The notes under the pieces: model-generated
Database searches by the model: none
Told to the model about the DNA's origin: nothing
Seen by the model: only the letters and a program-made list of their open reading frames with translations
From: Psilocybe cubensis
Taxonomy: Eukaryota
Direction: 5' to 3'
NCBI GenBank assembly: GCA_017499595.2
Contig: CM039000.1
Location: forward strand, 2,108,001-2,172,000
DNA: 64,000 nt
Translations under genes and position numbers: made by a program
Shown here: positions 37,851 to 61,884 of the stretch, in pieces
How positions within the stretch are numbered: the first letter of the stretch is position 1
Layout of the letters: every line of letters begins with the position of its first letter

Positions 37851-38399
37851 ATCTACGCCCGCTCCTCCCGATCCGATCCCGATCCTCCCGCTCCAGCATC
37901 CGCAACCGCAACAGCATCCGCATCAGTGTCCGTATACACACTAATCACATTCTCTGCCTACACATATACACATTTCTTAATCAGATAAAATCAAACTCCC
38001 ACAACGAAAGAGAAGTGACGTACCATCTTCATCTTCATCCCCACCTTCCCCTTCATCCGTCGAATTCGAATGCGAAACGGGAAACACCAGAAACAGAGCT
38101 CAAAGCAGGCGATGGCGCTCTCTCCCCTGCACCTCCTTGTTCGGAACCCTCACCCGAACCCTCAACGACCCAACTACGACTCACAGACCCGTTGTCCGAT
38201 ACAAACGACGACGATATCTCCTGCGTGTCGTGCGAGATGGAAATAGACTCTGACTCTGTCCCTGAAAGCGAAAGGTACGGCGAGTGCAAAGAAACAGGCG
38301 AACGGGTACAACGACGCGGAATGCAACGACGCGGCGCGCGGCACGAACACGGGTGCGGGCGGCGAGAGTGTGAACGGTGCGGGCGCTGGTGTGGGTGAT

Positions 38400-39500: not shown

Positions 39501-39549
39501 CCTTCCGGGTGATCAATAGTCCTCTTTCTCTCTGTCTGTCGAGATGACC

Positions 39550-40292: not shown

Positions 40293-40759
40293 TACAGTGG
40301 GGAAAACCAAAAGCGCCACGATGAGATGATGAGATGATGGGAGTGTACAGGTTCGTGTCTAGTGCTTTCATTTCGTCTTGATTTCGTGTTTGGGTTTGGG
40401 TTTATAAGTCGGAATTCGAGTTTGTCTGGTGGGTGTTGTGTAAGATATGCTATGCTATGGTGTGATATGTGGTGTGTAACAGTGTAAGATGTTCAGAGCG
40501 TACTGCAAGTCGGTGTGAGGTAAGATGAGCTGAGGCGCTAGTGTCAGCGTCGGTGTAGGCGTAGGGTGTAACCGTAGAACACAAACTGGGTTGGCAAACC
40601 AAAAGCCAATGTGAAGGTCGATAGTCGATAAACGGTGTTGGTGTAGGTGTAAGTGGGCAGTGGGTATACCACGCCATTCTCCCCGCTTCAGATCGAAAGG
40701 CAAAGTCAAACAAAGAGTCAACAGTCGAATCGAAAACCCGCAAAAAGGGGTTGGTGGTG

Positions 40760-41775
40760 GTGGTAGCACCCCACTGCACAACTTTGCCTGGTCTTCCTCG
40801 TCGTCTTCGTCGTCTTTTTCTTCTTCGAAATGAGGCCGTCGGAGAGGATGTGGACGTCGATGTCTACGCCCGTTTCCATGCCCATGTCCCTCATTGTCGA
40901 CTTCATCGTCTTCATGGAAATCGTCCTCATCATCCTCTGTATCGTCCGATTCGCTGGGACTTACTAACCCAGGCTCGTCCCCGTCCTGCGCCACTGTAAC
41001 ATGTTGGTTGAATTTTTTCTTCCTCGCTTGCTCTAATTCAAATTGTACATCCTCCTGGTCCGTTTCTCCCTGGTTTTCATCGCGTACCGTATGATGTGGG
41101 TTGAAGCTTTTGGCATTCATCTTTTTCTTCCTATCCCTAAGAGCGGCTATTTGGGCGTCTGCTCGCCATCTGTTGGGGTCCACGGCGATGTTTGTGTCCA
41201 GATTCTGACGCATTGCCTCCATACGTAGAGCCTCGATCTGACGCTCATTGAAAGCGGCGCGTTCCCTCCACGCTCAAGGTTCAGGCTGGCAGGGTCGAGC
41301 GGCGCAAAATGGCGGACGAGCCTGGGTTGATGTTGCAGTTGTGGTTGCGGTGGAGGCGCGTGAACGGGGGGCAGATCGGGGAGCTCTTCCTCTTCGAATA
41401 CGCCCAGGCGAGCATTCTGCGACATCCATTCACGGAGGAGGAAGACGGCAACGAAGATGAGTACAATGAGCGATGCGATGATCAGGCCGGTGAATATGTC
41501 TGCCGAGGGCGCTAACCATGCCGGATGTGAAGAAACCTTGGAGAAAAAATGCTGTTGGATGGCGGCCCAGGGGCTTCGTAGCGAATTCTATCGATAGAGG
41601 AAGCTATCAGAAGTGGATATTAGATTGAGATCCCGGATGAGTACGTACGCGGATTCTCCCATGGAAAAGACGTCCACACTGTTATGCATGGCAATATTCC
41701 TAGCCAGATTGTAGCAACAGCTATAATACGAACAACAGGGAGAAAAATAATTGTTGTAAAAGCCGCCGAATTACC
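40760..41775 (-). pseudogene. DOA10: Captured internal fragment of the ERAD E3 ligase Doa10/SSM4 (MARCH6-like)
   Basis: IRRLLQQLFFSLLFVL*/VATIWLGILPCITVWT/FSMGES...SADIFTGLIIASLIVLIFVAVFLLREWMSQNARLGVFEEEE. No RING-CH domain, several frameshifts. Confidence 0.75.
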
Positions 41776-41855
41776 CGTCTAACGTCACTGTCCGCAGTCC
41801 CTAAGCCTAAGTCGTAAGTAAGAGGGAAAGGATACAAAAAATACCCTCGAAAAAT

Positions 41856-42058
41856 CTCGCATGCCCGAGGCATGGTGTTCATGGTATCATCTGGAATACA
41901 ACTTCCAGATCGCAGTTTGATGTAAGCCAATTGGACAGGAATGCTGCTTAAGCCGTCCGTTCGAGTAGTATTTGGCCAGATCACTGAGGAGACCATACGC
42001 CAACCTCACTAGAGAATCAGAGCGTTCCTCGTCGAAGGCAGCGGTGAACAAGCTCCAA
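41856..42058 (-). pseudogene. KAP95: Captured C-terminal fragment of importin beta-1 (Kap95)
   Basis: Across frameshifts it reads LELVHRCL/DEERSDSLVRLAYGLLSDLAKYYSNGRLKQ/AFLSNWLTS/LRSGSCIPDDTMNTMPRACE, matching the last HEAT repeats (GLLGDLA...TMRWARE). Confidence 0.7.
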
Positions 42059-42260
42059 CTTAAGTAGTCGAGCACGCCAAAGATGTCGCTGAGCGTCCTA
42101 GTGAACTGCGTCGTGATGGGCACGACTTTTGCCTGGCGAGGTGACGCACATGGACGACAATGCTCTCGTCTTTTCTGTGCCGCTCCGCCGCGAAACGGAG
42201 GTGAAACAGTTGTAGAAGTAGCCTAAGTGAAGTGGCAGCCAACCAGAGATGTCAGTAGGA

Positions 42261-43536
42261 ATCGTTAGTGTTCGGGATAGGAGATGGGCTATACTATGTA
42301 AGTTACTACAGAAAATTAGGTAGACAGAACGAAACATACCTGTGTAGAACAAGAGGAAGGAAATGGTGAAACGAACGACTTGAGTGAGAATCGTGTGCGT
42401 CTAATCGCATGGTTAGCAAACGGCGGGTACACTGGAGTTGCGACTTACCAGACATGCTTCGAAACTTTTGCGATGTCTTGTTCGCTGACCTGTATCTGCG
42501 CTGAATGACTGACCCAATATACAACACTGTGCAGAAAATTGTGTTACTTACGGCGAGCGTAGAGATCTCATACGTGCTTAACATCTGTGTTGGCACTTCG
42601 ATTACACCTCACGCACAATATCATTCGGTCCCCATTTCGCTCCCTGTAGTAGTATTTGTATTATTTACATGGTACACTACGCTAGACTGCCTACATGGAT
42701 AGCAGCGCTACTCGGTCTATATGTGCTACTTCACCCGCTAGATGAGCATGGTTGGAACAGAAGAAGAAGAAAGCGTGAGAATATGGCCAGCACGCCAACA
42801 AGTACCGCAGAAGTTCGATGCCGCTCATGCCGTCGCCAAATTGGTGATGCGCGTGATTGGTGGCACGGCATCAGCGGCATCAAACTTCTGTCCTGTATCA
42901 TGGCGATTTTGTGACGGTGTGACGCCTTTCCACCTCTCTCTCAACACTCACTCCTATGAAGCACGTCGTACGTAGAGATGGTTCGCATACGAGCTTACTG
43001 TAGTAGTAGCACTTTAGTGTAGACTCTAATACCATAAACTTAGCTAGCTGCGTACTCTAGTAATACAATTTTAGTTCAAGTGACATAGACCCGGCTTGGA
43101 AGGGCAGAGGAAATAGTCGGGTGAGCGACACAGAACGAGGAGGAACTACAATTCATTTGGATAGTGAATTACGCAGAAACATAGGTGCGAATCGTATTTT
43201 TATTACTATCAGGCAGGAAACACAAGCCAAGAACACCTTCTACAGCACACCCGCCGCCTCTTCGCCTGCCAGACCCGTATTCGAGCGTCACAAACATAGG
43301 TGAGGAATCATCTTTGCTATCAGTGCAGGAAACATATTCTACAGCACATGTGCCGCCTCATTGCTTTACAGACCTCACTTATTCAACGACGCACCCACCT
43401 ACATTCAAGAATTGAACGTTGAATGCTGCCATAACTTTATGTTTTGTACGACGCTGCCTACTGTAAGCACCCGATCTGCGAGGTACCCTCTTTGCAGGTT
43501 GCCGTTTTAATTTGGATTTCACGATATCGGGACTTG
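42261..43536 (-). repeat. Module R copy 1, left arm of the 1276-bp near-identical inverted repeat
   Basis: Reverse complement of 59814-61089 (coordinates sum to 103350, mirrored ORFs are identical). I spotted only two mismatches, at ~42267 and ~43474. Weaker similarity continues to ~43586. Confidence 0.97.
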
Positions 43537-44169
43537 TGTAGGATGTGCACATGGCTTCCGTCGACTCTCCTGCTAATGCAACTATATGCAAGTCTATTCT
43601 CATCTGACACGAGTAACGTAAATATCTCATTTACCCCCCCCCCCCCCCCCGTTGCTCTATTGAACCCCACAATTGGGATGACAGCCAGCGCTTTCACATG
43701 TTATTTACAACATCCTGATTTAATCAGGGGCTGCTAGAATTTTCGCTCATTCCGCACCTCGACTCGAGCCATATTTTTGAGAAGTAAGTTCAACCTTACA
43801 CGCGTGTAGGCAACGCTCGTGTCCTTTCTGCCTCCGTACTAGTCTCTTGTTTGGTAAAGACCAATTTTTCCATTGCTCCTCTTGCGTGTTATCATTCTGT
43901 CCTCGTTTCATAGGGACTACATCTAGTATGTAGACTACATGTTCGACGCCGCTCATGCCGTCGCTTGATTGGTGATTGCGCCAGCATCACATGTCGCCCA
44001 ATTATCTTATCTTATCGCTGTCAGAATAGACAAAACAGCAAGAGATCCCTTAAGACTGCCGGCGCAGCGCGATGGCAGGCGCAGAGCGAGACCTGTACTC
44101 GGATAATCCAAGGTGGCTTTACAATACGGATTGGTTTAACGGGCAGCCTATGATCAGATCAGAGTGGTG

Positions 44170-45570
44170 AAAGTGTCAAAATGAGTGAAGGCGTTAACAG
44201 CCGTGATTCATACGAGTTCTGAGAACACACCCCCGAGATTGTGTGGTTCAGCAAAGAAACAAAAAGATGATTGAGATATCTGGATATGAAGAGCTGTTTG
44301 AATTGCACCAATGCTAACGGAAGGCCACAACATATGTGCTTGTGGGACTCGATGAGAGCCATGAGCAATTCACATAAGATAAACACAGTCCGGCTCGATA
44401 TGGTGCAATCCAATTAAAACAGCACCTGCAAAGGGGGTACCTCCTAGACAGAATGCTTATCGTAAGAAGCATCGCAGAAAAAAATATGGCAGCGTTCTGT
44501 GAGTGTGGCGTCGTTTATTAAGTGACGTCTGTCAGGCGACGAGGCGGCGCATATAGAATATGTTTTCCATACTAGTGATAGCAAGATGATTCTCACCTAT
44601 GTTTCTGTGTAATTATGTGACCTCGAATGAAGGACTGGTGGGAGAAGAGGCGGCGCGTATGCTAGAACATGTTTTTGGTTTATCTTCTCTGTACTGATAG
44701 CAAAAGATGATTCTCACCTATGCTTTTGCATAATTCACCAGCACATGAATTGTCATGTTCACCGGTCTTTGAATTAAAGTTATTATGGTGTTAAAATCTA
44801 CGTTAAAGTATCCCTACCGCTAAGCTAAATATTTGAATCGAATTTACATTCGACCCGCCGCATTGGAGAGTGGGGGTTGTCAGAGAGGAAGAAAGGCGTC
44901 ACACCGTCACAAAATCGCCCTGATACAGCACAGAAGTTCGATGCCGCTCAAGCCGTCGCAACATTGGTGATGTGCGTGATTGGTGGCACGGCATGAGCGG
45001 CATCGAACTTCTGCGGTACATGTTGGAGAGCTGGACATATTCCCACGGTTTTCCCTTCTTTCCTGCGCACCATCCTGGCCACGACGTTCGGCGGGGCTGG
45101 TGAACCTGAACCTGTCAAAGCAGCACGTTGAGATTGAGTAGCGTAGCAATTTATGTACATGGACTAGCGTAGTGTGCAATGTATATAGTACTAGATCAGA
45201 GGAAATATTCTGCTACGAGATGAGGACGGTGACGCGTCAGAGGCATGGGGATCATATAGACTCTACCACCCGGTGCGATGTCTAGCGTACGCCCTGGTTT
45301 TGTAGGAGGTATGATGCTGCACATTTGGTCAGTTATCCACACAGATCCACCTTTAGTGAACAGAACATCTCTTGGTTGGTGAGTCGCAACTCCAGTCTAC
45401 CCTTCAATAGCAAAGCACACTGACTGCTTGCGGACCGTCCCGACCGTCCCAAGGAAAATTACAGACTGCTTGCTGAGCGTCCCTGGAAAAACTACACTCA
45501 CTTATTTCTTACCGAAGGTGCTCGTTGCACCGTCTGCTTCGTCTTGCTTCACTTAGGTATATTCGGTACA
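44170..45570 (+). repeat. Module R copy 2, diverged; inverted relative to copy 1 and direct relative to copy 3
   Basis: Collinear blocks shared with copy 3: acctgcaaag.gggtacctc, gatagcaa.gatgatt.ctcacctatg (twice), aaaggcgtcacaccgtcacaaaatcgcc, the 83-nt hairpin and gt.agtcgcaactccagt. Confidence 0.85.
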
Positions 45571-45767
45571 CTCTACATGCAATTTCTTACAACTATAAAC
45601 TTAGATTGAGTGCGTCGCAGCAAAGGAGGCCACAGGGCAGCTCTTAGCACCCACAAGACAGCTCACCTCCTTCCTTATGTTTTTACTCCAAGGTAAGCGT
45701 TCATCTCATAGCCGTTTATTAGCTGAAATTTATTGTTTCCGTAACAGTACTGCCTAATCCCTACTGT

Positions 45768-46647
45768 CTATTCTGCATCATTGACTCCTGCGATGTTGGC
45801 AAGGGCAGCTCGAACCCGAGCGCTTTCCCTCCTCCCCTCGACACGACGATGTGCCTCCGCCCTATATTTCAGCTTCAACTTCAACACGCTATGAACTGGC
45901 CAACATTTATCGTAATCCCTGAGAACCGGCCAACGCCTAGTTGCCTACCACGTGTGTCAGCCTTGCTTTTGAGTAGTAAAACAAACTGGTAATTACCTCT
46001 TGACATATTGCTTCAATTTTTTCCTTTTTCTGAGATCTGTAGCTTTTACTCATATCCAGCGACCTCCTTGCTTCTCGGGTGATGTATCCCTACGGACAAA
46101 ATCAAGGCATCAGTCAAGTATGGTGAGCCACTATTGATTTACATACCACCATATCTCCTATATCTTCCTCAGACCAGTGGAAGTCGTCCCTCAGGACTGT
46201 CTGGATATTAAACCCACCACTTCCCCGACGGCCAGGTTCTCCCTTTGGCTTCTTATACATTTCGCCTCCTGGGACCGGCGAAGTCACGCGAGGATGAGAA
46301 GGCCCCGCCACTTGGAGGATCATAGCGGGATCAATGGGTTGCCCAGGATCGACCTGCACATGAGTTGCTGGTGTTGCAATTGAAGGCCCGATTGGAGGGA
46401 CAGGTACGGTGTCCTGGCCTGAAGGTCCCTCTGCCTGTATGAGCTCTTCAGGCCCTGGAGCTGCGACGGATGATGGCTGTGGCGCGGCTCCACGCGGAAT
46501 GGCGTGTCGCTGTAGCAGCTCTGGAGTCCATTGGATACGAGGGGTAATCTTAGGTAGAGGTTCTTGACTGGGTAAGAGGAATTCGATCCGGGGAGTGATG
46601 AGGGGGAGATGACGAATGTATTCGTGTGAAGGATGCGAGGATGACAT
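45768..46647 (-). CDS. Uncharacterised protein, 3 exons, with a KPKGEPGR.GSGGFN / CWPV motif family
   Basis: MSSSHPSHEY...KKPKGEPGRRGSGGFNIQ...W...|GYITREARRSLDMSKSYRSQ...AICQE|ATRRWPVLRDYDKCWPVHSVLKLKLKY...* splices in frame. I recall this motif from repetitive agaric hypothetical proteins. Confidence 0.75.
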
Positions 46648-47231
46648 GGTATATGTCGAGGAAAGATTGTGCGTTTTTCTTTTCATTCACTATTTGTAGT
46701 TTCGTATTCGTCGCTCAATCATCCCCTTTGTTTATTCTATGTAACGTCTCGCTCTTCCGCAGACACTCATCCTCAGTGTGCACGTCAAATCTCAGTGCAC
46801 GTCAAATACGCACCAATTGTTTCGCAAAGTCGCTCTGCTAGTGTCAAAGATTGTTTGATCGATATCTTCTCACCGTAGGGGTAACCATTGATCGCTACCT
46901 ATCATTCTTTCATCAATATCTATTTCAGGGAGGGCTCAAGAAAGCATCATTTGTCTCTACAATGAGTGAAAACCCCAATGACAATATTATCAGACATTGA
47001 GCCTTAGTTATACAAAATGAGCCTTAGTTCCAATATGAATACGGTTTGGCAAAAACGTGACAAAAAGGCGACACGACTCAAAGGGAGATGTTATCTTTGA
47101 CGAGTTATCTGTGACTCGTCAATGGCCAGTGCCAAGGGTGTCACAATGACTTCCGGCGGCGCTGGCGGTAAAGTACTTAAAGAGCAGGAGTTATCACCAG
47201 TCGTAAACGATTCAAACCATCAGCACCCGCC

Positions 47232-49061
47232 ATGGCAAGTGTAAGCTTTGCATCCTGTAGTTGTCGCCCGCTGACATGTTCGATAGGAGAATTTCGCAAT
47301 ATTCAGAACATATAAGTTGCCATCCATTCTGCCTATCAACACTTTATTGTTCTCAGAGGACGCTAGACTCTTAATATCTGGCGGTGAGTCTTTTCCTATC
47401 GTCAGTGTTAGGTAATCTTTAATAAGAACAATATCATACTTAGGAGATGACGAGACGGTATATGTCTTGGACACAAAAACGGGGGAATGCATTCAAACTC
47501 TTGAGGATGACAACTGGGGACAAATCACCACAGTTGTCTGGGGACAACAGGAGTTACCCAACAGAGAAAACGGCGTTGTGTTATGCATTGGCACGGGGAG
47601 AGGGTGTTTGGCGTTGGTTGCGCTAGACTATGATGCCACCGAAGTACTTCTCTTTCTCGTTTCAACTTCCTGTGTCCTTACATTCTGTATATCATTCCTT
47701 AGCCATTCCCAGTAGGCGCGAACACATCTCCTGTATTTGCGTTCAATGACTCTGTCGAGAAAATGGCTTTCGACAAGCTCAACAATCGATTAGCCGTCAC
47801 AAGTCACTCCGGTGAGATCAAGGTTTTTGCAGTAAACAACAGTAAGTACTCTTGTCAATCGCCCTAGCACTCAAACCACACGAATATGGTACTCCTAGCT
47901 TCCTTGAGGTTATTGTGGGCCGATAATATTGGCAAAGTGATCACCAGCGGCCTATTCTTTTTTGGGGGGTCGAATCAAAGCCTCTTGACCATCGGGTTGG
48001 AGACATCGGAAATGTGCGTTGATGTTTCTGTTTCCTTGCAATATATTCACGAATTTCTACCACAGGAAGTGCCTCGATGCTTCAAAGAGAGGTCCGCCAT
48101 TATGGACGAAACATTTGATTGGTGGGATGTACGTGCTACTTTATGGAAACCCTCCATTATTTTGATAAATTTTTGAATATTTGACAGTGGAAGCGCGTCT
48201 CTGTCCAGCGATGAAACGTTGCTTCTTGTAGACAACCTTGCTACCGGTAACTTCGACGTCTATCAGATCGCCGACAACTCCCCTCTTCGTTCCCTGCCAA
48301 TAGGCTCGACCCGTCGATTTTCCAAGCAATGCGCCTTCTTTGAAGGTTCGAAAATAGCAGTTTGCGGCAGTGACACCAATAAAGTTTTCATTGTGGATGT
48401 CGCAAACAACTATGTTGTTCAGACACTGACAACATGTCGAGGTTCGACTTTTCGCTTACCCCCGCATTTCAGTTTATTAATTTGTGGACTTAGGTACTTA
48501 CATGACACAAACGGTCTGTGTTACTCCATCGTCATCGCGCAACGTCTTTGTCGCCGCCGCATGTCGTGGCTATGTATATATCTGGGAAAAATCAACTCCT
48601 CAAGTCCAGGTAAATGTTCGCGCAGATGACCCTCCCCCTTCGAGGTACCGTCGCGTTGGATCCGCTATTTTGCCTTACCTGGGATTTGCTGTCGCTGGTA
48701 CTGTCGGCCATTGGTTACCACACGCCTGGAAGGTGAGCAGCTTACAATCCTTTTGGCATTTGACAAACTAATGATATTCAAGTTGGGCCAAGACATAATC
48801 ATGAAGACTGCTGATTATCTCATCCAGAATGGCGCAGATAGGACGATGGAACTTCCAAGAGAAGCTGTTGACAAAATCTTCGAGATGGCGGCAGCGGCCT
48901 CGAGGGCTTTGGATATGTCGTCGGCACTGGTGTCGTCGAGGACTCTCGACATGGCTGCTATTGCTACAACAACATACACGGCTGCTACTGCGACTGCTAC
49001 GATGACATCCCCTTCTGCTACCTCTCTTTTTGACATGGCAGCAGCAGCGGCTGGCCATTAG
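47232..49061 (+). CDS. WD40-repeat protein with a C-terminal hydrophobic segment, multi-exon
   Basis: INTLLFSEDARLLISGGDDETVYVLDTKTGECIQTL, DSVEKMAFD...LAVTSHSGEIKVF, IAVCGSDTNKVFIVDV, GYVYIWEK, all joined by GT-AG introns. Confidence 0.8.
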
Positions 49062-49209
49062 AATCTGCATCTGCGTATCCTTCTAATTTGAAACGTGCCC
49101 TAGATTTCTTTTGTACATTTATGATATCGGATAATGACATTTTGCTGAGTAACCTGACTACATGCATCGAAGCTATGATCTACACAGTTTTCCATTATGT
49201 TCTCAGTGG

Positions 49210-52200
49210 TCAAAGAATTTGCCTATCTACAGGTCGGAGTCGGGATAAAGATACACATACAGCGACGTCTCTATCTTCCCATGGGATGATACATTTGGCA
49301 AAGTGTCCTTCTACAGCTGAAAAAGGAAGGACTTCGAGGATATCTTGGACGTCGGTTCCCCATAGTTTGGCACGAAAATGAACCCACGGGATATAAGGAT
49401 CGTATTTGACCCCCGCTTCTTGGTATCGATTAACCACAAACCATATATCATCCCTAAGTACTTTTTTAGGAAACTTGAGGACATTCTTGATACGGTAGGG
49501 CACATTTGACGCATTGAGGACCCCGCTATTGCCTTCATGTACGTCCCAAGATGTATAAGATATCCGACCAACGCGATAACGGTTTGTATACATTGCCCGC
49601 GCGGGCACGGTTGTCACACCATACCGTAAAAATGCCCGAGTAATGTCCATCTTTAACACCACCGCACGTCGATCATCGTATGGGATGGCTTCTTCTTGAA
49701 GATCTTCTTCGCTTTCCTCGTCGTCTGTCTCAGTGTCATCGTCGGCCTCAGCATTTGCGACATCGATTGTCTCTGCTTCTCCTGCGAGTATGTACCGTCC
49801 TTGGGGCATCACCAACTTGCGAAAGATCGGCCAACAGTCCCGAATAGCTTGTGGACATCCTGGTCTTTGAAAAATTGCCATAAGTTTGGACCTTCTGTGC
49901 CAGGAAGTCGCAATTGTTTCCTCGTACTCGCCTACTATAGATCAGTAACCATGAAAGAGCAGGCAACAGGTAAAGCAAATTACCTTGCTTGTAATTTGTG
50001 GGAATTCTTTGCAGCATCCCAATCATACGTTCGAAGGGAAACGTCCACCAACCATGAACAGGCCCATATTCGATGATAAACTCCCTCATATGCATAGCCA
50101 TATGATGATTAGGAACACACTGGTAGCTTGGAAACAGCCTTGAAAGCTCGGAACGGTATTGTACCATCAAATTCAGGTATTCATTGGCCATAGCTGGTGA
50201 TGCGACCCGGGAAGTGATGACAGATATGGCCTCAAAAAGAAGCATCGTGAGGCGCAAAAGTTCTCGACGTGTTTGGGCAGGTTTCGAATGGTCAATTCCC
50301 GACCATATTCGGATGAGGGTAACTGGGATGTAAAGTGCTGCCGCAATGCGCCATTGGTCTGATTTGAGTTTTCCACTCTTTGCGGACATCGACCAGGGTA
50401 ACGACGAGACCCATGACGGTTTTACCATAGCTGCAATGTCTCGTCGGATGGATTTCATGTCTTCTGCTGTAAGTATCTTTCCCTGCTTGCCATCCACTTC
50501 TGAAGTAGCCTGGCTTGACTGTGACTGGCCGAAATTTTTAGTTGTTAGAAGAATTGAAAAATTTAACAACGTACGGATCTTTCTTTACGCTATTCACCGC
50601 GTATTAAACTATCAGATTGATGTTGAGGTAACGACGATGCAGACGTACCCATTGAACAAGCATTTGGGCCAGATCTTCTTTCTTGACTCGCATCATACCA
50701 TTTAACGTGTCCCGGCCACGATTGGTGATGGTAGAGGGTATACACCCCAGATGTTTACCAACAAAAACAAGGGCTTCTGCTGCGGTCTTCTTTGCCAACT
50801 CGTTTGCTACGTCGGCATCTTCGATTGGAAGAGGCTCTGCCAACCATTTTCTGATGATGCGTATTCCTTTTTGACCAGACTCTGAGGTTGGCAAAGGATT
50901 ACTTTCATTGCCCTCAATGTTTTGTAATATAACGCTATCGCTCGATATAGGTGTTTGTTGTTTCTTCTTCTGCTTGGGTAAATCAGAACCGTCACCGAGA
51001 ATGTGCTGAAAATGCTCTTTGATGAGTCCAAGAAAAAGGTTATGCATCGGGTCTACAACAAGGCTCATGGTTGGCCGATAATAGGGCAATCGATGAAATT
51101 CTGACGTGCGCAATCCGGATTTGTCGAAAAGGCTTGCAGCGGCCTTTTCGGAGGGGGCTGCCTGGTATTTCCAGGCACCATCTCGACATTCGTCATCGGT
51201 GCGCCATGTCCATTTTTCATAATCGAAGTTGTTGAATGTATGCACAGTTTTACTACACCAGCACATCGAACAGAAATATTCCTGATTGTATGAAGAAAAT
51301 CCACCAGCCTTCCGTGCTGCAGGAAGATCGGCGATGATTGCAAGAAGAGCACAAAGAATAATGCGCCCCATAGCGTAAAGAGCGGTGCGCGTAAAAAAAA
51401 CACCCACCCAAAACAGCAGGAAAGTGTCAACAATAGGGCGGAAGTATGGGTTTGCTGCTTCTAGACTGGGTTCATTGGGACCCGGAATAATACCCGCGAG
51501 AAAGATGTTTTCAGGTTGATATCGAGTAGTTATGGGAAGGTTGAGGCATGTTAATGCGATAACTCCAATTGAAATCTTCTTTCCAGCCGTAAGATTACGC
51601 AAAGGATTAAAGAAATCAAAGCCGAGTGAAAATAGATAACGTCCAGTAGTTTCATTTCCGGATACACCGAAAAATTTCTTATCGCATCCCTTGAAGTTAC
51701 GGATGCTGGAAGACTGAAAAATATCGTCCATGCGCCCATTTTCTTGAACAGGTTCGAACGTTTTCTTCCAAGCACCGTCCATTGCTTCCTCGTATCCTCG
51801 ACGCGATAACATGCCACCAAGCCAGTCCTGGAAATCGAATGATAGGAAGGGTTTGATGGGTACATTAATGGTCTTATTGCTGTATCTCTTTGGCCGGACA
51901 AGAAGTTCCCCACAACGATTACCGAACTTCCGGGCATTGCATCGTTCGCGATAGGTAGAAATATCGTCCTCTAGGGTTGGCTTGTAGATTTCATTGCACT
52001 TTGGACAAGCGGCATACACGATGAACTTCGAATCAATGTCAAAACGCTTGATTGCCGCTCGAACGTCTAGAGGAAACGAACGAAGAACTTGCTCGAGCCA
52101 ACGAGGAAGGATTTTGTCGACAAAGATAGCCTCTCCCGTTCTTTGAGCGATATATTCGCACATGGAAAAGACAAAATAGCATCCACGTCGAGGAAACCTC

Positions 52201-53043
52201 AATATAGCGTAGCAAGAAACAACCATAAGGTTGATCATCTGCATCGCGTCAATTATCCATGGGGGTAGCCAAGGCATACTGTATGCATAGGGAAGGAAGG
52301 GAAGGAAGTGGTGCCCTAGGGTCGATAGTTGATAAATAGTTCATCGAATACAAAGTGAAAAATAAACATGCTCGCTCACTTGAATCGTATAAATTAGGTA
52401 CGCTATCCTGAATAGAAACTCGCTGGCGAGATCTCTTCGTTTGCCTCTCCTTCCATGTTGCCTCTACACGGTCTACATCTTCATTAAGTCGCTCGATATT
52501 TTGGTGTGCATCATGTCGCAAAGATTTGATCGAGGCTTCCTTGCGCAAAGGACCGGATTTCGTAAAGTCTAAATCTCTCGATGCGTTGGAATTAAGAGCT
52601 CGTACTTCATGGCAAAGTTGAATTGCCTTATCAATTTCCCCATTGCTGAAATATTTCTCTCCTGAGATGTCAATGGTGTTGATTTGTTGGGCACGAAGTC
52701 TGGTATTGTCTAGAATATCTGCAATCAGAGCCACGATTTTTTTCTTCTGTTCGTGCTTGTACTGCACTTCCTTTTCCTTGATCGTCTCGGTGTCCGGGTC
52801 CTGAACAGATAAAAGTTGCATTGCTTTCTCCAAGGTGGTTTCGACCTTCTCCATGGCCCTTTGCTGCTCAAGGATCGCCCGTGATTCAAGATTCCTCTTC
52901 ATCTGACCCACGCTTTCCTCGTGTTGGTGCTTTTTATATGTAGATGGCGACAATTGAACACCTGGCTGTCCTGTGACAGGATCGCGTTTCGCGCCGCACC
53001 CATGCACAGTGCACAGGCAAAACTTGGCTTTCCAAACCGGCAT
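49210..53043 (-). CDS. CACTA/CMC-EnSpm (Tnp2/Transposase_21-like) DDE transposase, about 4 exons, apparently intact
   Basis: YAACPKC, GFDFFNP (D), GIIPGPNEPS, RPIVD, IADLPAARKAGGF (D), FCSMC (CxxC), VDPMHNLFLG, KLKSDQW, PNHHMAMH, YGPVHGWWTFPFERMIG (E). The four ORF pieces splice in frame. Confidence 0.93.
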
Positions 53044-53571
53044 AGGTCTGTCGAATCAACCAGAATATCGATATCGATGTGGTAACGGTTAAGCAATGAT
53101 AAGAGAAATTTTACCACATGAGAAATTATTATGCGATCACGCAGCTGCAGCTGCAGCGGAGGCAATGACCCGGAGGAACTCGATAAGGTGATGTCGCCGA
53201 AACGCCGAGGCATAACAAAGGGACTGAGCGATGAAAGACTAGCGTTTTCTTTTAAAGCGCTTGTTCAGGAACTTTCTTCATTACCCTCACCCAAACACCC
53301 AGCACAACTGAGTCTAGTCGTCCAACTAAACTATGTCTCAACCTTCCAGGAGTCGTAGTAACAGCAAATCATCCGTAACAGGGGCTACCCCAATATATAC
53401 CGCGATGCTTTCCCGCGAACACTATATAAAGGCTGTTAGCGCGAGATCAAGAAAGAACGCAGGGGTAAGTTGTCTAAGGATTGATTGAGGCGCATTTTTC
53501 AATGATACATTACCTTCTGTTAGAAGTCTGCTTCGAGGCAACGCCGGTCTCCTGAAGCAGGGGACGCTAGC

Positions 53572-54892
53572 ATGGTGGCAGGGCCATCGAGATTCCAGGA
53601 AGTTGATGATGACGACATGGACCAATCCTTTGAATCCAATTCAACTGCGTTAGTCACCAACACCTTGACGTCCAACAAAACCCAGGCTGCGGTGCGCTTG
53701 AGTATAATGATTTATGTATTTCAATCTGACAGTACATACTTTCACCAGGGGAGTATTCAAAGGGCCTACACGGCCCCAATGGTCTCGTCCTTTGCCGAGA
53801 ACCGTGAGGTTTCCACCGAAGGTCCATCGACAGAGATTGCGAATGTGTCGGTGGATGCTGGGAGAGACAATCTTATGACCAGACGTCCTCCTATACAGGT
53901 GGCCAACGTGAATGCTATATTAGCCATACTCCCAGGCCGGAATGAATTGTTTCCCGCCGTTCAACATAACCGATCTATTGCCAATGGATCGTATGCAGCA
54001 TCCACCAATGTCCAGAATGATCGAGGCATAACCAATCAACAAAGCGGAGTGGATGCTGGGATAGACCAAGTGATCATTAGTCAAGTACGCCACGATCATA
54101 CGCCGTCGACTTTAGCACTAATCAACTACTTTCGATGAACAGGATGAATATGACAGGCTGAAGTCCACTTCAAATGCTGCAAGGTTGAGAAGTGATGATA
54201 TAATAGCGACCGTAAGAATAATGAAATGATTCATAAGGAGGCGACTTACATCTGCATCCATTTTCCAGGTTAGAGAAGTTCAAGCCGACAGGGAGCGCAT
54301 TGCCGCCCTTGAGCGAGGTCTAACCGAGCAGGGAGAGACGTTTAAATGGGTTAGTTTGGTTTCTTCCCTCACATAACCTTATGACGTTTATCCGAGACCG
54401 TCACACTTTTTAAACAATTATATTATAGGAAATTGACAAAGCGAGCAAGATGTATACTGAGCTCTTGAAGGAGAAGGTGGCCCAGGAAAACCTGTACCTT
54501 GAAACGAAGAGGGTAAATTTACAATATGACCGATATCGATAATGTTAATGACAAATTTAAATAGGAAAATGACAGGTTGAAGGAGCTGGAAGAGACAGTA
54601 CTTGGATTCGCAAAATGCACAATTTGCTATGAATTTATGGAGCAAATTTGCGTGTAAGCCTTTTCGAGAACTGTGTTTACAGATCAAAGTGACCTCAGAA
54701 CATTATCACAGCTTTGCTTGTGGTCATGTTTGCTGCAACGATTGCAGGACAAAGCTCGAGTTATTTGACACACTGAGGTGCTGCTTTGTATGCCGCACAT
54801 TTGTTCCAGATGAACAACCCCTCTCGCGTTACCATCCCCTCAGCCAGATTCTGTCCAATGTAAAGGATAAGGCTAATGCAGAGGGTGTTTAG
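53572..54892 (+). CDS. RING-finger (C3HC4) protein with a coiled coil, multi-exon
   Basis: Spliced C-terminus DSQKCTICYEFMEQ...FACGHVCCNDC...CCFVCR, preceded by ENDRLKELEET and RERIAALERGL. Confidence 0.8.
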
Positions 54893-55036
54893 AGTAATCC
54901 TACTCCCTCTGCACGCTGCAGCTTCTGTTCGAGGTGATCATATAAGTATATAGCAAATGAAGAATGTCATGTTTCATACCAGAATTTATATTATCTTCAC
55001 AAGACGAGGTGATGGTAGAGAAATACCAAAAACAGG

Positions 55037-58000
55037 TCACAGTATCTTTTTCTTGTACTGGTCTTTTAACTGAGTCATAACATTGGAGTTGAGGTCTCTG
55101 TCTTTCTTGGACTCGGGAACTGAACACAGGAAATCCGTGCTGAGTATAAATCGCTCGCCAGTTAAAACGTCTACACGATCTTTAGATCGGGTGACTACAG
55201 CGACCAAGACAGTTGGATTATCCGAGGTGCCTTCATGATGAATGCGACGAACGAATTTCCCGCAATGTTCCCCCTTGATAACCACTAGAGGCCCATTGTC
55301 ATGTATTCGATTTGCATACTTCGGAGTGACCCAAGCGGGGTCCACCATAGTCCATGAACTGTACTTTTTGCACCTGAGTACGAGGTTGTTTGCATCCCAA
55401 ACCGTTGAGGCGACTAATGTTTTATTGCTGAACTGTCCGCCGTTGACTACCACATTCAGGCTGATGTCCACCAGTTTGGGGTTTAAGAGAACATGTTCGC
55501 ACACAGAAGAGGAAGTCGTATGACAGTTTGTTTCAGATGAGGAGGAAACAGATGTAGAGACGTCTGATAACGCAAGACTTGTTGGCGAATGAGCAGTTGG
55601 GTCAGGTGTCCTTGAGGAGGGGTCCCAAGCTGGAGTGATAGATTGCGGTGTACCGATGGGTGTCCTTGAGGAAGGATCCCAGGCTGGAGTTGCAGTGGGT
55701 TCTGAGTACATCGGTGTGCCGCTCGCTGACGCAATCGTTTGCGGTACGCCAGGGAGAACGCGGACGTGCTTCATGGAAGACTTAGGTATAGGACGGAAAA
55801 ATTTTGGCCCAGGATCAAGGAAAAGAACGAGCTCATTGAACGTCCTTGCGTACAAGTTAGACAGAGGGTACATGCAATGACAACACACTTACGAAAGTTC
55901 GACGACATCGTCATAGTCCACAACGATTGTTTGGAACGGTGCAAAGGGATTAAAACGGGTGAGTTGAATAACGAGCTGCAGTCCGGCGTTGTCTGTATGA
56001 TGAAGGACGTCTTTGATTCGTCCAGTCTCACCCTTGCGTGGGTGAAGATGCTTCTGTATAATGACCTCTAAACCAGTCCATGGGTGTCTTAAAAACTTGG
56101 TGTGGACTGGGTCTGACTCCGACAATAATGTCACATCGACAAGAGGTAGGGGCTCAGTAAATGAAGTGTCCAAGAGATTGACGTGTACCGCAAAATGCTG
56201 TTGAAAGGTATAGCCACGTTAAGAGAAAAACCGGTGAATATGTCAAGCTGCAAATTTACTCACTTCCACAATCTCAACCTTGTTATCATCTCCTACCCCA
56301 GAATTAAACTGGTTAGATGCTGCTGTTGTACTGACCACAGCGCCCTGGTTGTACGACTCCTGAGCTGCTGTTGGTTTTCCTACTCCTGTGACACACGAAC
56401 TCCCTCCCGGCATCGACATTTCTTCTTCATCTAACGTTGCTGCTGATTCATCCAAAGTTAGAGCGATATCCGAATGCACCATTATACCCCCTGGCATCAT
56501 TTGCGCTTCTACCGCCGTCCCCAGATCTGTCTCCGCCGAACCTTTTCTCAGATCATCGTTCCCTGTCGGCACGGGATATTGTTCTTTTCCGTTGGTGGGC
56601 GTCGAAGATGTTTCAGCATTTGTTTCCACAATGGAAATGCGACCATGCACCGAACTTTTCGTTATTAGTGCATGGTCTCCATGGATTCCAACGACCCAAC
56701 CTCTGTGATCGAAATAGGGGCCGCTCACAACTCGAACGAATTGCCCGATTTTTGGTGACTTGAGAATGTCTAGCCATGTTCCCCTAACACTGTAGCGGAT
56801 TTCACGTTCACCTTCGATTGTTGATTGTTCTGCTTCAACGTCGTATGTGTCCAGCTTTTTCAGCACTGCAGGTTCCCACTTTGCAGACCGATTCGCAACG
56901 TCGGGTGTACGAAAAAGAACCTCCTCTTCCAGTCCTAAGCACCATTCCCGAGGACGTGGCATACGCGCTCGCATTATGTCGGGATGATTGGTGCTCCTAA
57001 ACATGGAGAAGTGGGAATACGGAATATCCATGACGGAATTTGCGATGGAGGTATAGTCGAAATCCTTTTCCAACAGTCCATGGTCAAACTTGAGAAGTCC
57101 AAGCGTGTATGATCCATCCGCATTGCGAATAATGGGAGTAGAAATGAGTTTGCGGGCTTCTTCAGGGTCGAAAAGTTTTGCTGGGGGTACTAGTACCGAT
57201 GACTTTCTCTTTTGTGACTTTGCAGATTGCGAATTTAGCCGAGGAATGAGAAGAACCTGAGCGCCCCAGGAAAAAGTCGCTGAAATCAGTCCAACGTCTC
57301 CTTTGTATATGCCTTTCTTAACCAAAACCCAGGTCCCAACCTCAAAATCCTTCTTGACATCCCTCATCGTAAGAAGTTCGTGCTGATGGTTCCGATCCAC
57401 TATTTCGCGCTTGACTCCAAGGTGGTTACGAAGGATTCCGGGCGTGGACAAGAGCAGATTCACGAGGGCTGGATCCATGATACCTTCAACGTAGATACTT
57501 CCGCGTATAGAGCCGCGAGTAAATGCGGAACGAATATGGTGGATCTCCCTTGCGGTCTGGAGAAGGGATAGGACAGCTGCATCCTCAGAGCCGATCTGCA
57601 AAAGTTGATAGAAAAATAATCAAGGGATAGGTATTCAGACTTACCCGACATCCAACCCTCCAGAGAGGATAGTCATTCTCAAGCGGAAGACGCGCAATCT
57701 TCTCCTGGAGCATGGTTATCCTATCTTCCTCCTCCAAACGTATAACCGGACGTGGTTGACGAGGGCCCTTTGCTTGAGCCTCCAGGCGAGCCAGTAGTTG
57801 GTTAAATGAATCCTCCTCGCTGTCATCTTCTGGCCTATGGAACGCCATAGAGCCTATGTGATCTTTCCCGTCCACTTCCGCTCCGTCGTTAATGAAGGCA
57901 TCTGTAAAGACAGTCAAATCAAGTCTATCGCAACATTCTGAACAGCTCGCCTTCAAGGTCCCGTTCTGCAGACGTAAGCTGCTCATCGTCAGAAAGCTCT

Positions 58001-58123
58001 CCATCATCAGCTACCTGTGCCTCCGTGTCCAGAAATTGGCGGACGTTCCTCATAACCTAGGGAGAAAAAATCATGAGTATCAAGATGCTTTGAACAGAAA
58101 TCAAGCAAGCCTACCCGCTTCAT
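55037..58123 (-). CDS. Spt5/NusG-like transcription elongation factor paralogue (acidic N-terminus, NGN, multiple KOW, CTR-like repeats), about 6 exons, ~930 aa
   Basis: RQFLDTEAQVADD...FIND; LWRVGCR|IGSED...IRSAFTRGSIRGSIYVEG; GTWVLVKKGIYKGDVG..LLIPRL..PPAKLFD; KIGQFVRVVSGPY; HPRKGETGRIKDV; TPAWDPSSRTP twice; VVIKGEHCGKFV. The exons splice in frame. Confidence 0.88.
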
Positions 58124-58329
58124 CCTTTGGACTGTGTCGTTCGATGGAAATGAACAAATTTAATTAGATGATCAGTTACCACTCTGACTTAGGAATCGGA
58201 ATCTATATGACGTTGGTGTGCTCAGTAAGTTTTTTTCATCTTCATTACGATGGTGATCTCATTTTCATTTTCCAACTATCCAAATCTATCACTGAACTAC
58301 GTGTAATAGTACATATTCTCGTTCCGGTT

Positions 58330-58520
58330 CAACGCCAATGCAGAATCCGTGGCGTATCTTACCTGGAATGACAGCCCCTGAGCAACGAGGAGACAAAACG
58401 GTATGGTGGAGAGAAGAAGAAAAAGAGCGTGGGAATGGGTGGGGGGCTGTAGAAATGGCGCAGAAGTTCGATGCCGCAAATGCCGAAACATATCACGTGT
58501 TAATGTTCCTCGGGCATCCC
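58330..58520 (-). repeat. Module R copy 4, a short diverged fragment upstream of the Spt5-like gene
   Basis: atggtggagagaagaagaaaaagagcgtgggaat...cgcagaagttcgatgccgc matches 42748-42825. Confidence 0.7.
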
Positions 58521-59379
58521 GGGTGTGGATGAGGGTTCAAAACATTGAGAGCTGAGCGTCGTGCTGAAACTTATCAATGCGGAAGCGCTCATGTGAACAC
58601 TTAAGCTCGTATCCTGTTAAAAATGCATGGTGAAACCTATTGTAGGGAACCTAGACGATGGAGCGACACGAAGTAGTCGGCTCGTCCTGAATGAAAAATT
58701 CATAGAAAATGGACATAATAAATTATTGACATGACCGTTGAGACAACTCATCCAGAATAAAATTTAGGGGCAGAACCAAGGGGCACACCGTTAGTTCCAT
58801 CAAAAACCAAGGCACAAGTTATGTATGGCGTACCCAGGTCTATGCTACCGCGAAACTAAGTATTTCGTTGCTTGCATATTCAAAAGTACGTACTACAGTT
58901 TACAAACAGTGGGAAATCAGCTACTCTACAAGAGTCTCAGGTGTTTGTATTTCCGAAGGAAAATAAGCACATTCAAATAATCTTGTAGTGAGCGGCGACC
59001 TTAGCATTTTGTGAGCCCAATAATTCGAGTATCAACGGTAGATATATTTGCGTGGAAAACGGTAAAAACAGACGAGGCCGTACTTCCAAGGACCCGCAGA
59101 AATAAGTTAAGGAGAACATCCTGGTTCATTGATCCAATCATGTAGATAGGGTCACCATGACACTGTAATAGAAGAAGCGCGGTTGTAAAAATACAGGGCC
59201 AAGTCCTCAATAACGAATATGTGAAACATACAAATTAGGCACCTCGTCGTCGAAGTCGACAGATTTGCGGGCCACGTTGCGGTGTCTACCACAACCTTTG
59301 CGATAATAAACATGGATAAGCTCGTACAGTTAGTGAGCAATGCAGAGCGGTGATGAAGCTCTACACATAATATGTCACT

Positions 59380-59709
59380 GAACATCTCGTGTTCGGGAGA
59401 GTAAATTCGGCTTACAGTACGTGTAAAACAATACCTCACGGCGATTCGAGTTCGAGGGTGAAGTGGGCGCTGGGCAATGGCCGTGTTAGATTGTTGAACG
59501 AGATTTTAAACCACCCACTGGCAGGACAAAATGGGGTTGGAAAGTCACCGAAGATTATTATATCAAGTAGAGCTTGGGTTAATAAATTTAGTATATCAAT
59601 TGCAGATATTGATGAAGCGACATACTTCATAGATTGAAGAGAATTATTAGACGGGAACATCTCGCGTGTTCGAGAGAGTAAATTTGGCTTACAGTACGTG
59701 TAAAACAAT
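59380..59709. repeat. Direct repeat of ~54 bp (59380-59432 and 59655-59709)
   Basis: gaacatctcg(cg)tgttcg(g/a)gagagtaaatt(c/t)ggcttacagtacgtgtaaaacaat occurs twice. Confidence 0.92.
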
Positions 59710-59813
59710 TGAGACTGGTGCCGCTCGAATACCTGATAGAAAAAAGACGGAGCCAATCTATAGTTGCATAAGCAGGAGACTCGACGGGAGCCATGTGCAA
59801 ATCCTGTATATTC

Positions 59814-61089
59814 CAAGTCCCGATATCGTGAAATCCAAATTAAAACGGCAACCTGCAAAGAGGGTACCTCGCAGACCGGGTGCTTACAGTAGGCAGCGTC
59901 GTACAAAACATAAAGTTATGGCAGCATTCAACGTTCAATTCTTGAATGTAGGTGGGTGCGTCGTTGAATAAGTGAGGTCTGTAAAGCAATGAGGCGGCAC
60001 ATGTGCTGTAGAATATGTTTCCTGCACTGATAGCAAAGATGATTCCTCACCTATGTTTGTGACGCTCGAATACGGGTCTGGCAGGCGAAGAGGCGGCGGG
60101 TGTGCTGTAGAAGGTGTTCTTGGCTTGTGTTTCCTGCCTGATAGTAATAAAAATACGATTCGCACCTATGTTTCTGCGTAATTCACTATCCAAATGAATT
60201 GTAGTTCCTCCTCGTTCTGTGTCGCTCACCCGACTATTTCCTCTGCCCTTCCAAGCCGGGTCTATGTCACTTGAACTAAAATTGTATTACTAGAGTACGC
60301 AGCTAGCTAAGTTTATGGTATTAGAGTCTACACTAAAGTGCTACTACTACAGTAAGCTCGTATGCGAACCATCTCTACGTACGACGTGCTTCATAGGAGT
60401 GAGTGTTGAGAGAGAGGTGGAAAGGCGTCACACCGTCACAAAATCGCCATGATACAGGACAGAAGTTTGATGCCGCTGATGCCGTGCCACCAATCACGCG
60501 CATCACCAATTTGGCGACGGCATGAGCGGCATCGAACTTCTGCGGTACTTGTTGGCGTGCTGGCCATATTCTCACGCTTTCTTCTTCTTCTGTTCCAACC
60601 ATGCTCATCTAGCGGGTGAAGTAGCACATATAGACCGAGTAGCGCTGCTATCCATGTAGGCAGTCTAGCGTAGTGTACCATGTAAATAATACAAATACTA
60701 CTACAGGGAGCGAAATGGGGACCGAATGATATTGTGCGTGAGGTGTAATCGAAGTGCCAACACAGATGTTAAGCACGTATGAGATCTCTACGCTCGCCGT
60801 AAGTAACACAATTTTCTGCACAGTGTTGTATATTGGGTCAGTCATTCAGCGCAGATACAGGTCAGCGAACAAGACATCGCAAAAGTTTCGAAGCATGTCT
60901 GGTAAGTCGCAACTCCAGTGTACCCGCCGTTTGCTAACCATGCGATTAGACGCACACGATTCTCACTCAAGTCGTTCGTTTCACCATTTCCTTCCTCTTG
61001 TTCTACACAGGTATGTTTCGTTCTGTCTACCTAATTTTCTGTAGTAACTTACATAGTATAGCCCATCTCCTATCCCGAACACCAACGAT
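59814..61089 (+). repeat. Module R copy 3, right arm of the 1276-bp inverted repeat
   Basis: Reverse complement of 42261-43536. Confidence 0.97.
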
Positions 61090-61129
61090 CCGCACTATGC
61101 GCTATTAAGCAAACAAGATCCCGGACTTG

Positions 61130-61604
61130 TCATCGTTCGGATACCGGTGTTCCTTCCAACTCAACTCCACAACCCCTTTCGCACGGATAGGGCCCTCTGG
61201 ATGGGAATAGGTTATCAGAATTGCATTGCATGATGTGTAGAGCGCGTATACGCAGACGTATGACTGGGTAAGTCTGTTTACGTCGCATGTCCCATGGCAT
61301 TCGCTGATATACCTGACAGACCCTGATTCCCATATCCTCCATGCACATTGCGCAGGTGGATGACATTCGCATCCTTCTCTCTGTGCAGAACGAGCATCGC
61401 TGAGAGTGCACGATAAAATACCAATCAAGTAAGTAGCAGGTTCACTTACCTTGACGCTTCCACTGATTTGCCACATCCAAACTTTGGCTAGCAAGTCGTC
61501 GAACCTGGATGGCCAGCGAGGGGTCCATCGTCGCCCGACACGAACGCATGTACTTCAGTCGTGGAGACGTGTAGGCTCGAGCGGGAAACTGGGGCAACAT
61601 TAAT
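61130..61604 (-). CDS. Possible small spliced hypothetical gene
   Basis: MLPQFPARAY...QWKRQ|AMLVLHREKDAN...|VIRLRIRAL...SER* using GTAAGT...CTCAG and GTATAT...CCCAG introns. No homology recognised. Confidence 0.3.
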
Positions 61605-61884
61605 GTACGTGGCTGAACGAAGACGGCTGCGCACAGTACTCACTCCTCACACAGAGTTGCAACGCCCGTCCTTTGCTGTGTCCTCTCCATTCCATCGGTT
61701 GCATCAACGTTTTAGGGCAAACCATGACATATACAGAAGGTCATCATTTCGCGAGAGTACGTTTTTCGTCTTCTGTCTCTCTTTCTTAAGCACCAGGTTT
61801 TGATCTACAACTTCTCCTTAGCACGCTATACTTACGCCCGAGATACTAGCCATCATCCGCAAGGGCGGGCCCTCCGCAGAATGG

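Follow-up and report, generated by a model that had tools for sequence, protein, structure and literature searches.

The window analysed here is a 64,000-nucleotide stretch of Psilocybe cubensis DNA that contains a gene core (43587..59758). The core includes WD40-like gene exons (47416..48768, forward strand), an EnSpm/CACTA transposase (49213..53055, reverse strand), a RING-like exon (54581..54889, forward strand) and an Spt5-like gene with NGN, KOW and CTD-like parts (55040..58056, reverse strand), the last identified with Pfam and UniRef. The gene labels given by an earlier sequence-only reading held for the transposase (Transposase_21, E=1.2e-8) and the Spt5-like gene (KOW, E=1.2e-7) in Pfam, whereas RING (zf-RING_5, E=0.037) and WD40 (E=0.027-0.038) gave only weak matches under the cut-offs. 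When we searched UniRef with a 458-aa query from the Spt5-like gene, it matched a 948-aa P. cubensis entry, labelled SPT5, at 100% identity over the query. The transposase consists of four open exon frames and also matches DUF4218 weakly. It shows the motifs GFDFF, IADLPA, CSMC, NHHMAMH and PFER, which are partly common to agaric homologues, as well as the C(2)C and H(3-4)H motifs of a Tnp2-type DDE transposase of the EnSpm/CACTA class, and our assignment of catalytic residues from these motifs is putative.

The core is bracketed by two inverted copies of a non-coding module, R. Positions 42261-43536 and the reverse complement of 59814-61089, each 1276 bp, differ only at 42267 and 43474, exactly as the sequence-only reading had noticed, and the match extends to 43586/59759, giving 1331 columns at 99.0% identity with an additional 5-bp gap and eight substitutions. 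The left copy (42261..43586, forward strand) is composed of r, the first 684 bp, and q, the remaining 642 bp, and the internal copy lies at 59759..61089 on the reverse strand. The left terminal repeat described below ends, on its inner side, with this left copy. The outer junctions, GTAGGA/ATCG and CGAT/CCGCAC, carry neither CACTA/G nor a target duplication, in agreement with the same reading. That reading took the other R copies to be strongly diverged, which applies within the window only, where the paralogue R' (about 44346..45417, reverse strand) is 64-77% identical to R, but not outside it, where a third copy at 99% and a 684-bp half copy are found 9-13 kb past the right edge; the R complement is therefore three full copies and one half copy. 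A coding role for R was rejected: no conserved frame was found among the paralogues in an alignment judged by eye, and the one frame tested that overlaps the inner end of R had no Pfam match. On the right side, segment D (295 bp, 59464..59758, forward strand) is repeated before the terminal R copy, r together with the 740-bp U (60406..61829, reverse strand) forms one arm of a 1424-bp inverted repeat bounding segment B, and B itself (from 61830 to 64000 and beyond the window, forward strand) contains a coiled-coil gene with 672-bp tandem units.

The R pair belongs to the interior of a larger EnSpm/CACTA transposon and does not form the ends of a nested 18.8-kb unit. This transposon is 50.6 kb long and has five copies in the genome, on C3 (the window copy), C4, C1, C11 and C9, with family sizes of 49-61 kb. 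Its true ends are located at 32896 and 19.5 kb past the right edge of the window. All five copies have CACTG..CAGTG termini, of the 5'-CAC..GTG-3' form of EnSpm/CACTA, and they are flanked by five different target duplications with the 3-bp length of that class (ATA, AAC, GAA, TCA and TAT); in the window copy, ATA lies at 32893..32895 on the forward strand and recurs right of the far end at C3:2191515. Subterminal repeats in both orientations are a criterion of EnSpm/CACTA elements, and the first 450 bp (32896..33345, forward strand) contain 17 TCAAAC/GTTTGA motifs in both orientations, a density of 37.8 per kb compared with 0.4-0.7 per kb inside the element. Based on the five different 3-bp duplications, we conclude from the sequence that the element transposes via its CACTG..CAGTG ends and not via R. 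A Plavaka identity was rejected, since the ends are not TGT..ACA or CATCA..TGATG and the Plavaka Pfam match (E=0.03) was under the cut-off.

The layout of the element is A-r-q-core-D-q'-r'-U-B-U'-r-C-D-q'-r'-A', where primes denote inverted segments and R corresponds to r plus q. The terminal inverted repeats are 10.0-10.7 kb long, 10.7 kb in the window copy, and their outer arm A (9365 bp, 32896..42260, forward strand) is a mosaic of captured host-gene fragments, including mitochondrial carrier, Peroxin-3 and AP-endonuclease-like pieces among others, that match other genomic loci at 67-97% identity. The transposase frames are free of stops in all five copies, and the four young copies are only 7-13 substitutions apart over 13.4 kb of core (0.05-0.10%), which together show recent movement of the element only.

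We then compared the R haplotypes among the copies, and the results favoured the proposal that the internal repeats had been homogenised by conversion. First, the left and internal R differ at two positions in the window copy but at 13, 11 and 10 positions in the C4, C1 and C11 copies, respectively; the two-mismatch identity is thus peculiar to the window copy, and the larger distance in three sisters supports conversion. Second, a block of seven differences (43193..43237, forward strand) appears as a converted tract: the window's left R has the internal type there, whereas each of the four sister copies has the left type in its left R. In C9 and C1 only the left R has the left type, in C4 and C11 the terminal R has it as well, and in C3 neither does, indicating that the left and terminal R have been made alike, with changes in both directions, in the three young copies in which both of them complete the arms, while the internal R was unchanged. 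Both haplotype types are present in independent reads. Third, all three arm A substitutions common to exactly two of the eight arms pair the arms of one element, for which the chance is 1/7 each and about 0.003 for three, and all 47 variable sites of the core are private to one copy. This within-copy statistic is weakened to three of four (about 0.01) by a substitution in r, at 42574, that is common to the left arm of C4 and the terminal arm of C11, that is, to arms of different elements. Two further substitutions are common to both C3 arms and one C11 arm. The shared substitution sites are all CpG transitions, at which recurrence is possible. Finally, about 21 arm substitutions remain private to a single arm, indicating that conversion is occasional and not constant. 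The donor of the window tract was most likely the terminal copy, with the internal copy as the alternative, and the sequence is compatible with either.

The suggestion that the core is invertible fared less well. The geometry permits a flip, but the core has the same orientation in all five copies. Flips were observed in the neighbouring segments that are bounded by R-derived repeats, in two of five copies for B (C4 and C9) and in one of five for C. Since a 238-bp indel co-segregates with the B flip (C4 and C9 versus C1, C3 and C11), the latter possibly reflects a single event, and all isomers need only two inversion events. These isomers were seen between copies. Because the same half of R would face the core after a flip, a core flip would be no regulatory switch.

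The C9 copy bears on the origin of the long terminal repeat. Its core differs from the other copies by 0.23-0.25%, its terminal repeat is only 1.8 kb long at 84.6% identity, and its left arm is unlike its right. Since this older copy has an unlike left arm, the 10.7-kb repeat probably arose when the right arm overwrote the left through R. Alternatively, C9 could be a chimera that formed later, in which case it would not represent the ancestral state.

Based on these observations, we consider it probable that R is an internal non-coding module of a 49-61-kb EnSpm/CACTA family that has been reshaped by homology-dependent repair between R-containing repeats. This explanation starts from the ends, copies, isomers and mosaic haplotypes that we observed. 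Such repair would overwrite one repeat copy with another, and the left R of the window would have received an internal-type haplotype in this way, most likely with the terminal copy as donor across the 10.7-kb arms. This would explain why the left R is only two bases from the internal R. Occasional crossover resolution would flip the segment between two inverted copies, as in B and C, and the core could flip by the same route. Once, recently, the right arm would have been copied over an older, unlike left arm, producing the 10.7-kb terminal repeat, a direction of replacement that we infer. Our guess for the repair pathway is template switching during gap repair after excision, and R is probably repeated because it acts as a two-way promoter.

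In plastid and herpesvirus genomes with inversion isomers and in palindrome arms, conversion keeps large inverted repeats alike and the segments between them flip; the P. cubensis unit differs in being a chromosomal cut-and-paste transposon whose isomers are seen between copies. The fungal EnSpm elements described by Kojima (2025, PMC12730594) share the CAC..GTG termini, 3-bp target duplications, extra genes and a transposase with C(2)C and H(3-4)H motifs, and the EnSpm-1_PGr consensus is about 24 kb. In contrast, the P. cubensis element has a size of 49-61 kb, 10.0-10.7-kb terminal repeats, a 1.3-kb module that occurs three and a half times in its interior, and internal inversions between copies, and such features were not found in the accessible part of that account. 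Galileo of Drosophila mojavensis (PMC3573991) resembles it in having chimeric copies and long terminal repeats that lengthen by taking in sequence from further inside; repair-driven lengthening, with one end repaired on the other, has been proposed there. Galileo belongs to the P superfamily, however, and its repeats reach 1.26 kb and are longest in non-autonomous copies, whereas in the P. cubensis element 10.7-kb repeats occur alongside a transposase that is intact and four insertions that are recent. The medaka element Teratorn (PMC5601938, PMC6431247) is also a giant DDE element in which long inverted repeats enclose a unique region, and its subtypes differ by an internal inversion, but it is a piggyBac fused to a herpesvirus, and the repeats in its interior duplicate the 18-bp terminal repeat used by the transposase. 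R as an internal terminal repeat of the Teratorn type was rejected, the first 505 bp of the element having no match at any R position. Pack-MULEs (PMC6431247) likewise capture host genes, as in the arm A mosaic, but here the element is autonomous and the captured fragments lie within its duplicated terminal repeat.

No comparable element was found in a search of the openly accessible literature. The EnSpm/CACTA class itself is known, and what is new is the copy-specific R identity, the segment flips, the origin of the terminal repeat and the palindrome. One genome displays steps by which a cut-and-paste transposon can pass from unlike ends to 10-kb mirror ends and keep its mobility: one copy is older and asymmetric, four are young and symmetric, and the copies carry conversion tracts of their own and differ as inversion isomers. 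In the available account of Galileo, the case for such repeat growth was made mostly from short non-autonomous copies; it becomes testable in P. cubensis strains. Annotation tools are likely to cut such elements wrongly, taking inner repeats for ends.

The palindrome in question, on which R is centred, is element-specific and imperfect and spans 85 bp of R (42807..42891, no strand assigned), with two half-sites flanking a 31-bp spacer and a pyrimidine-rich tract outward of each. From its sequence, it is a candidate two-way promoter core. A single R-type half-site (58460..58477, forward strand) precedes the Spt5-like reading frame by about 400 bp and is kept at the same place in a relative on C8. 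The half-site resembles the subterminal motif only in a 7-mer, GTTYGAT, and R and the half-site motif were not found at two other transposase loci, on C12 and C6. The CCG-N6-CCG spacing of the half-site is reportedly the Hap1 geometry of Zn2Cys6 binding. A Zn2Cys6 protein as the binder was rejected, with no pattern match in the unspliced six frames of the element and the C8 relative. Rfam gave one match on 41700-45700, to a miRNA model with a score of 25.8 bits where the cut-off is 89, and this match is due to the hairpin only.

It is possible but doubtful that R acts as an element-specific two-way promoter and recombination hub, where a self-encoded factor would bind the palindrome, drive the genes and localise arm re-copying and flips. 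If so, giant CACTA elements in this lineage would pass from one isomer to the next, as herpesvirus or plastid genomes do, and would grow as captured host DNA is built into mirror arms of increasing length, with the 188-kb C8 structure as the upper extreme. Another reading, in which a site-specific recombinase or nuclease acts at the palindrome to programme isomerisation, core included, is improbable. The 18-bp half-site is nearly confined to the element family (65 of 68 genome matches fall inside six elements, against one match for the reversed control), the spacer is inverted between R and R', and the hairpin, at -28.4 kcal/mol against a window mean of -7.2 (s.d. 3.7), is among the strongest outside the element ends. 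Three homology boundaries (the r/C junction, the left identity edge in the left module of C9 and the inner end of the 99% arms of C8) also fall within about 100 bp of the palindrome, but such clustering is expected anyway because the palindrome is the best-conserved part of the paralogues. Moreover, a lone half-site precedes the Spt5-like gene, and the five copies show only two flips and none of the core. No recombinase was found by Pfam in the 45 ORF stretches scanned out of 129 of at least 85 aa, a scan that covers recognisable unspliced enzymes, and the six tyrosine-recombinase matches in the genome are all outside the six elements.

Returning to repair between repeats, we consider it quite improbable that the repeats are instead young one-off duplications that look alike through recency, with no later exchange. 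The few substitutions separating the young cores mean that recent duplicates would indeed look alike, but the mosaic haplotypes require at least three exchanges, and the sister counts together with the older C9 pattern indicate that the two-mismatch state is derived.

That the R pair and core form an autonomous nested unit, an 18.8-kb transposon whose terminal repeats would be the 1.3-kb pair, one of the options raised by the sequence-only reading, is highly improbable, even though an intact transposase does sit between the pair. The ends of R show no target duplication or conserved terminus, and the CAC..GTG ends and 3-bp duplications of this transposase family stand 9.4 kb further out. The comparison of flanks that had been proposed as a check showed identical flanks beside R in all copies, the C8 homologue runs seamlessly across the outer edge at 42261, and R was never met outside larger structures, all of its matches (at least 51) lying within the five copies or the related C8 structure.

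The least probable reading, that one arm is a misassembly or collapsed consensus, could draw on the 99% likeness of repeats in a multi-copy element assessed with short reads (151 bases, a length that does not span R and cannot show core flips), but it is very unlikely given that five contigs show the same layout and every one of them has variants of its own. In two sets of raw reads from a separate study, the depth in repeat bins was about 1.5-2x that of the core, and reads depart from the reference at 59467, 60406 and 61829, the branch points of the second D, r and U. Two read joints were also seen at low count and left out of the evidence, 60524 to 42873 (four reads in each raw run) and 60089 to 44541 (four reads in one run), and these possibly come from paralogues or library fold-backs.

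The two 1276-bp stretches at window 42261-43536 and 59814-61089 are reverse complements with mismatches confined to 42267 and 43474, and the match goes on, with one 5-bp gap, to 43586/59759; we define R as the 1326-bp unit containing this repeat. A further copy, R', at about 44346-45417, has diverged. As noticed in the sequence-only reading, the outer junctions of the pair carry neither CACTA/G nor a target duplication. The proposal that R bounds a nested 18.8-kb element proved wrong, since CACTG..CAGTG ends and 3-bp duplications bound a larger element of 50,620 bp, from window 32896 to G000:C3:2191515. When the genome was searched with R, all 51 matches listed, a lower-bound count, fell within this copy, the copies on contigs C1, C4, C9 and C11, and a related structure on C8. 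Alignment of the copy regions placed the other copies at C4:3848554-3898719, C1:107413-156670, C11:2664375-2715878 and C9:2324918-2386118. All five start with CACTG, end with CAGTG and are flanked by 3-bp duplications, each a different triplet, and 17 subterminal motifs lie within the first 450 bp of the element. The transposase matches Transposase_21, has homologues in agarics and retains four exon frames without a stop in every copy, and the Spt5-like frame is identical to a P. cubensis protein. By every feature testable the element is a member of EnSpm/CACTA, including those given for fungal EnSpm in PMC12730594. The largest printed sizes found were 16-20 kb (PMC6431247), besides a 24-kb consensus (PMC12730594); nothing comparable was found in the literature searched, with subscription journals and Repbase outside its scope.

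Short elements of about 720 bp have the same ends; about ten of them (0.7-0.9 kb, on C2, C5, C6, C8, C9 and C11) match the ends at 76-81% and are probably non-autonomous derivatives. A related 38.9-kb element (G000:C6:3225475-3264414) ends in 1.67-kb terminal repeats, carries a transposase with 52% identity and shows Spt5-like traces; the R module was not found in it.

The order in the window copy is A, r, q, core, D, q', r', U, B, U', r, C, D, q', r', A', where A is the outer arm (9365 bp), r (684 bp) and q (642 bp) form R, D (295 bp), U (740 bp), B and C are further segments, and a prime marks the inverted strand. A 10,691-bp terminal repeat, 99.8% identical to the right arm, has the left R at its inner end, and the arm at 59814-61089 is an internal R copy. 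Since the C8 homologue is continuous across 42261 into A, the edge at 42261 is a rearrangement junction. Raw short reads from another study (two runs, read to about 26% and 29%, for which core flips are out of reach) showed loose ends at 59467, 60406 and 61829, as the layout predicts. Summed depth in these runs was about 120-185 in core bins versus 210-310 in repeat bins, and core depth relative to the letters read points to some four copies per genome in that material too.

Segment B codes for a long coiled-coil protein (window 62705-64000 and L001:1-4732, L001 being the sequence past the right edge) built on 672-bp tandem units, and their varying number explains most of the length differences among copies. 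Two minus-strand frames, in the core (window 46117-46686) and in segment C (L001:7162-7491), have the peptide LPLITPRIEF in common, hinting that the core start and segment C derive from an old duplication. In the C9 copy, the internal R contains three tandem copies of a 351-bp unit (G000:C9:2347019-2349048), and the terminal R holds a 15.7-kb insertion (approximately G000:C9:2361207-2376875) with terminal inverted repeats of about 320 bp (CACAT..ATGTG) and an apparent 7-bp target duplication.

The suggestion that R copies undergo conversion was right. Over the 1276-bp span, the left R is separated from the internal one by 2 differences in C3, versus 13 in C4, 11 in C1 and 10 in C11. A block of seven changes at 43193-43237 accounts for the larger part, and both of its types are present in the raw reads. 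The left type is found in the left copy only in C9 and C1, in left and terminal copies in C4 and C11, and in neither in C3, while the internal R is never changed there in any copy. These patterns are most simply read as exchange that went both ways between the two long arms, with none in C1, where q was flipped out of the right arm; the left R of C3 may instead have been converted from the internal rather than the terminal copy. In arm A, three substitutions are common to exactly two of eight arms, each time both arms of one element (34370 and 40011 in C4, 37148 in C1; chance about 0.003), and two further ones are common to both C3 arms and the C11 left arm. Against exchange within elements, a substitution in r is common to C4 and C11; CpG transitions, which are able to recur, make up 18 of the 26 arm alleles; and 21 alleles occur in a single arm. 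The core has 47 variable sites in 13.4 kb, each of them confined to one copy. Judged from these patterns, exchange between the repeats is real but occasional.

CpG transitions make up over half of the differences between copies, and C>T or G>A changes account for about three quarters of the positions that vary in the raw reads of both runs (window 41900-61899), a pattern that points to the element being methylated.

The C9 copy differs from the others in its ends. It is flanked by a matching TAT duplication, but similarity between its ends extends over only 1.8 kb, at 84.6%; inward on the left follow about 2.9 kb unlike A and then a module whose left half is a diverged paralogue and whose right half is R. 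Its core shows just 30-34 differences from the young copies in 13,400 sites, and a genome search found no other copy of this left end. We infer that the C9 form is the earlier one and that a copy of the right arm later replaced the left, via a switch somewhere in 42802-43192; the symmetric form would then have inserted at least four times. It is possible that C9 is a later chimera. Replacement of the left arm would resemble Galileo, for which repair of one end on the other is proposed in PMC3573991. Ordinary homologous repair underlies these processes; what is unusual is the scale, together with the visible series of states.

Orientation was scored with probes that placed all five copies. The core, which had been supposed invertible, has the same orientation in all of them, whereas its neighbours do invert: the C4 and C9 copies have segment B, bounded by 1424-bp inverted repeats of r and U, in flipped orientation, and C1 has segment C with D and q, bounded by 684-bp r copies, flipped. 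At 43865, C4 and C9 keep 238 and 407 bp absent from the other three copies, the longest form being that of C9, and this retention in the same copies indicates that the B flip may be a single event. At least two inversions, none of the core, are needed among the five copies. Teratorn has the long-repeat layout in common with this element, but according to PMC5601938 its internal repeats are true terminal repeats, while R is none.

No long reading frame or noteworthy Rfam match was found in R. Its best-conserved part is an 85-bp palindrome, whose 18-bp half-site, with two or fewer mismatches allowed, has 68 genome matches; the five copies and the C8 structure contain 65 of these (reversed control, 1). 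A lone half-site lies about 400 bp upstream of the Spt5-like frame in the window copy and on C8. The palindrome arms show, by eye, no compensating changes, and together with the lone half-site this favours a binding site for protein over a folded RNA. All nine half-sites examined, which are related by descent and so not independent, have a tract rich in pyrimidines 20-70 bases further on (0.64-0.84, against an element mean of 0.5); CT-rich tracts are presented in PMC6591348 as general promoter elements of ascomycetes, little tested in basidiomycetes. Whether R acts as a two-way promoter seems to us evenly balanced. If it does, the core sees the same half of R from both sides, as does B, so that flips would leave expression unchanged. 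The half-site core GTTYGAT (window 42873-42890) resembles the subterminal motif TGTTTGAT (32915-33296), and one protein could bind both, seven bases being weak evidence. A site-specific mechanism at the palindrome is improbable as the driver of rearrangement: three homology boundaries lie near palindromes and the spacer is inverted in R', but scans of 45 ORF stretches of the element, among 129 that reach 85 aa, and of 44 among 80 long ORFs on C8 turned up no recombinase, and all six PF00589 matches genome-wide lie outside these elements.

The single-copy 188-kb structure on C8 (G000:C8:2637779-2825697; pieces L045-L064), with CACTT..AAGTG ends and TCA on either side, is a candidate very large CACTA relative. 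Its arms match at 99.2-99.6% over the outer 21 kb or so and at 88-91% further in. It holds three R homologues (84%) and two more distant ones, an Spt5-like homologue (79%), a Tnp2 transposase, nested Plavaka and KDZ/TET pieces and captured ABC-transporter fragments, and it has its own internal inverted repeats of 0.8-1.0 kb.
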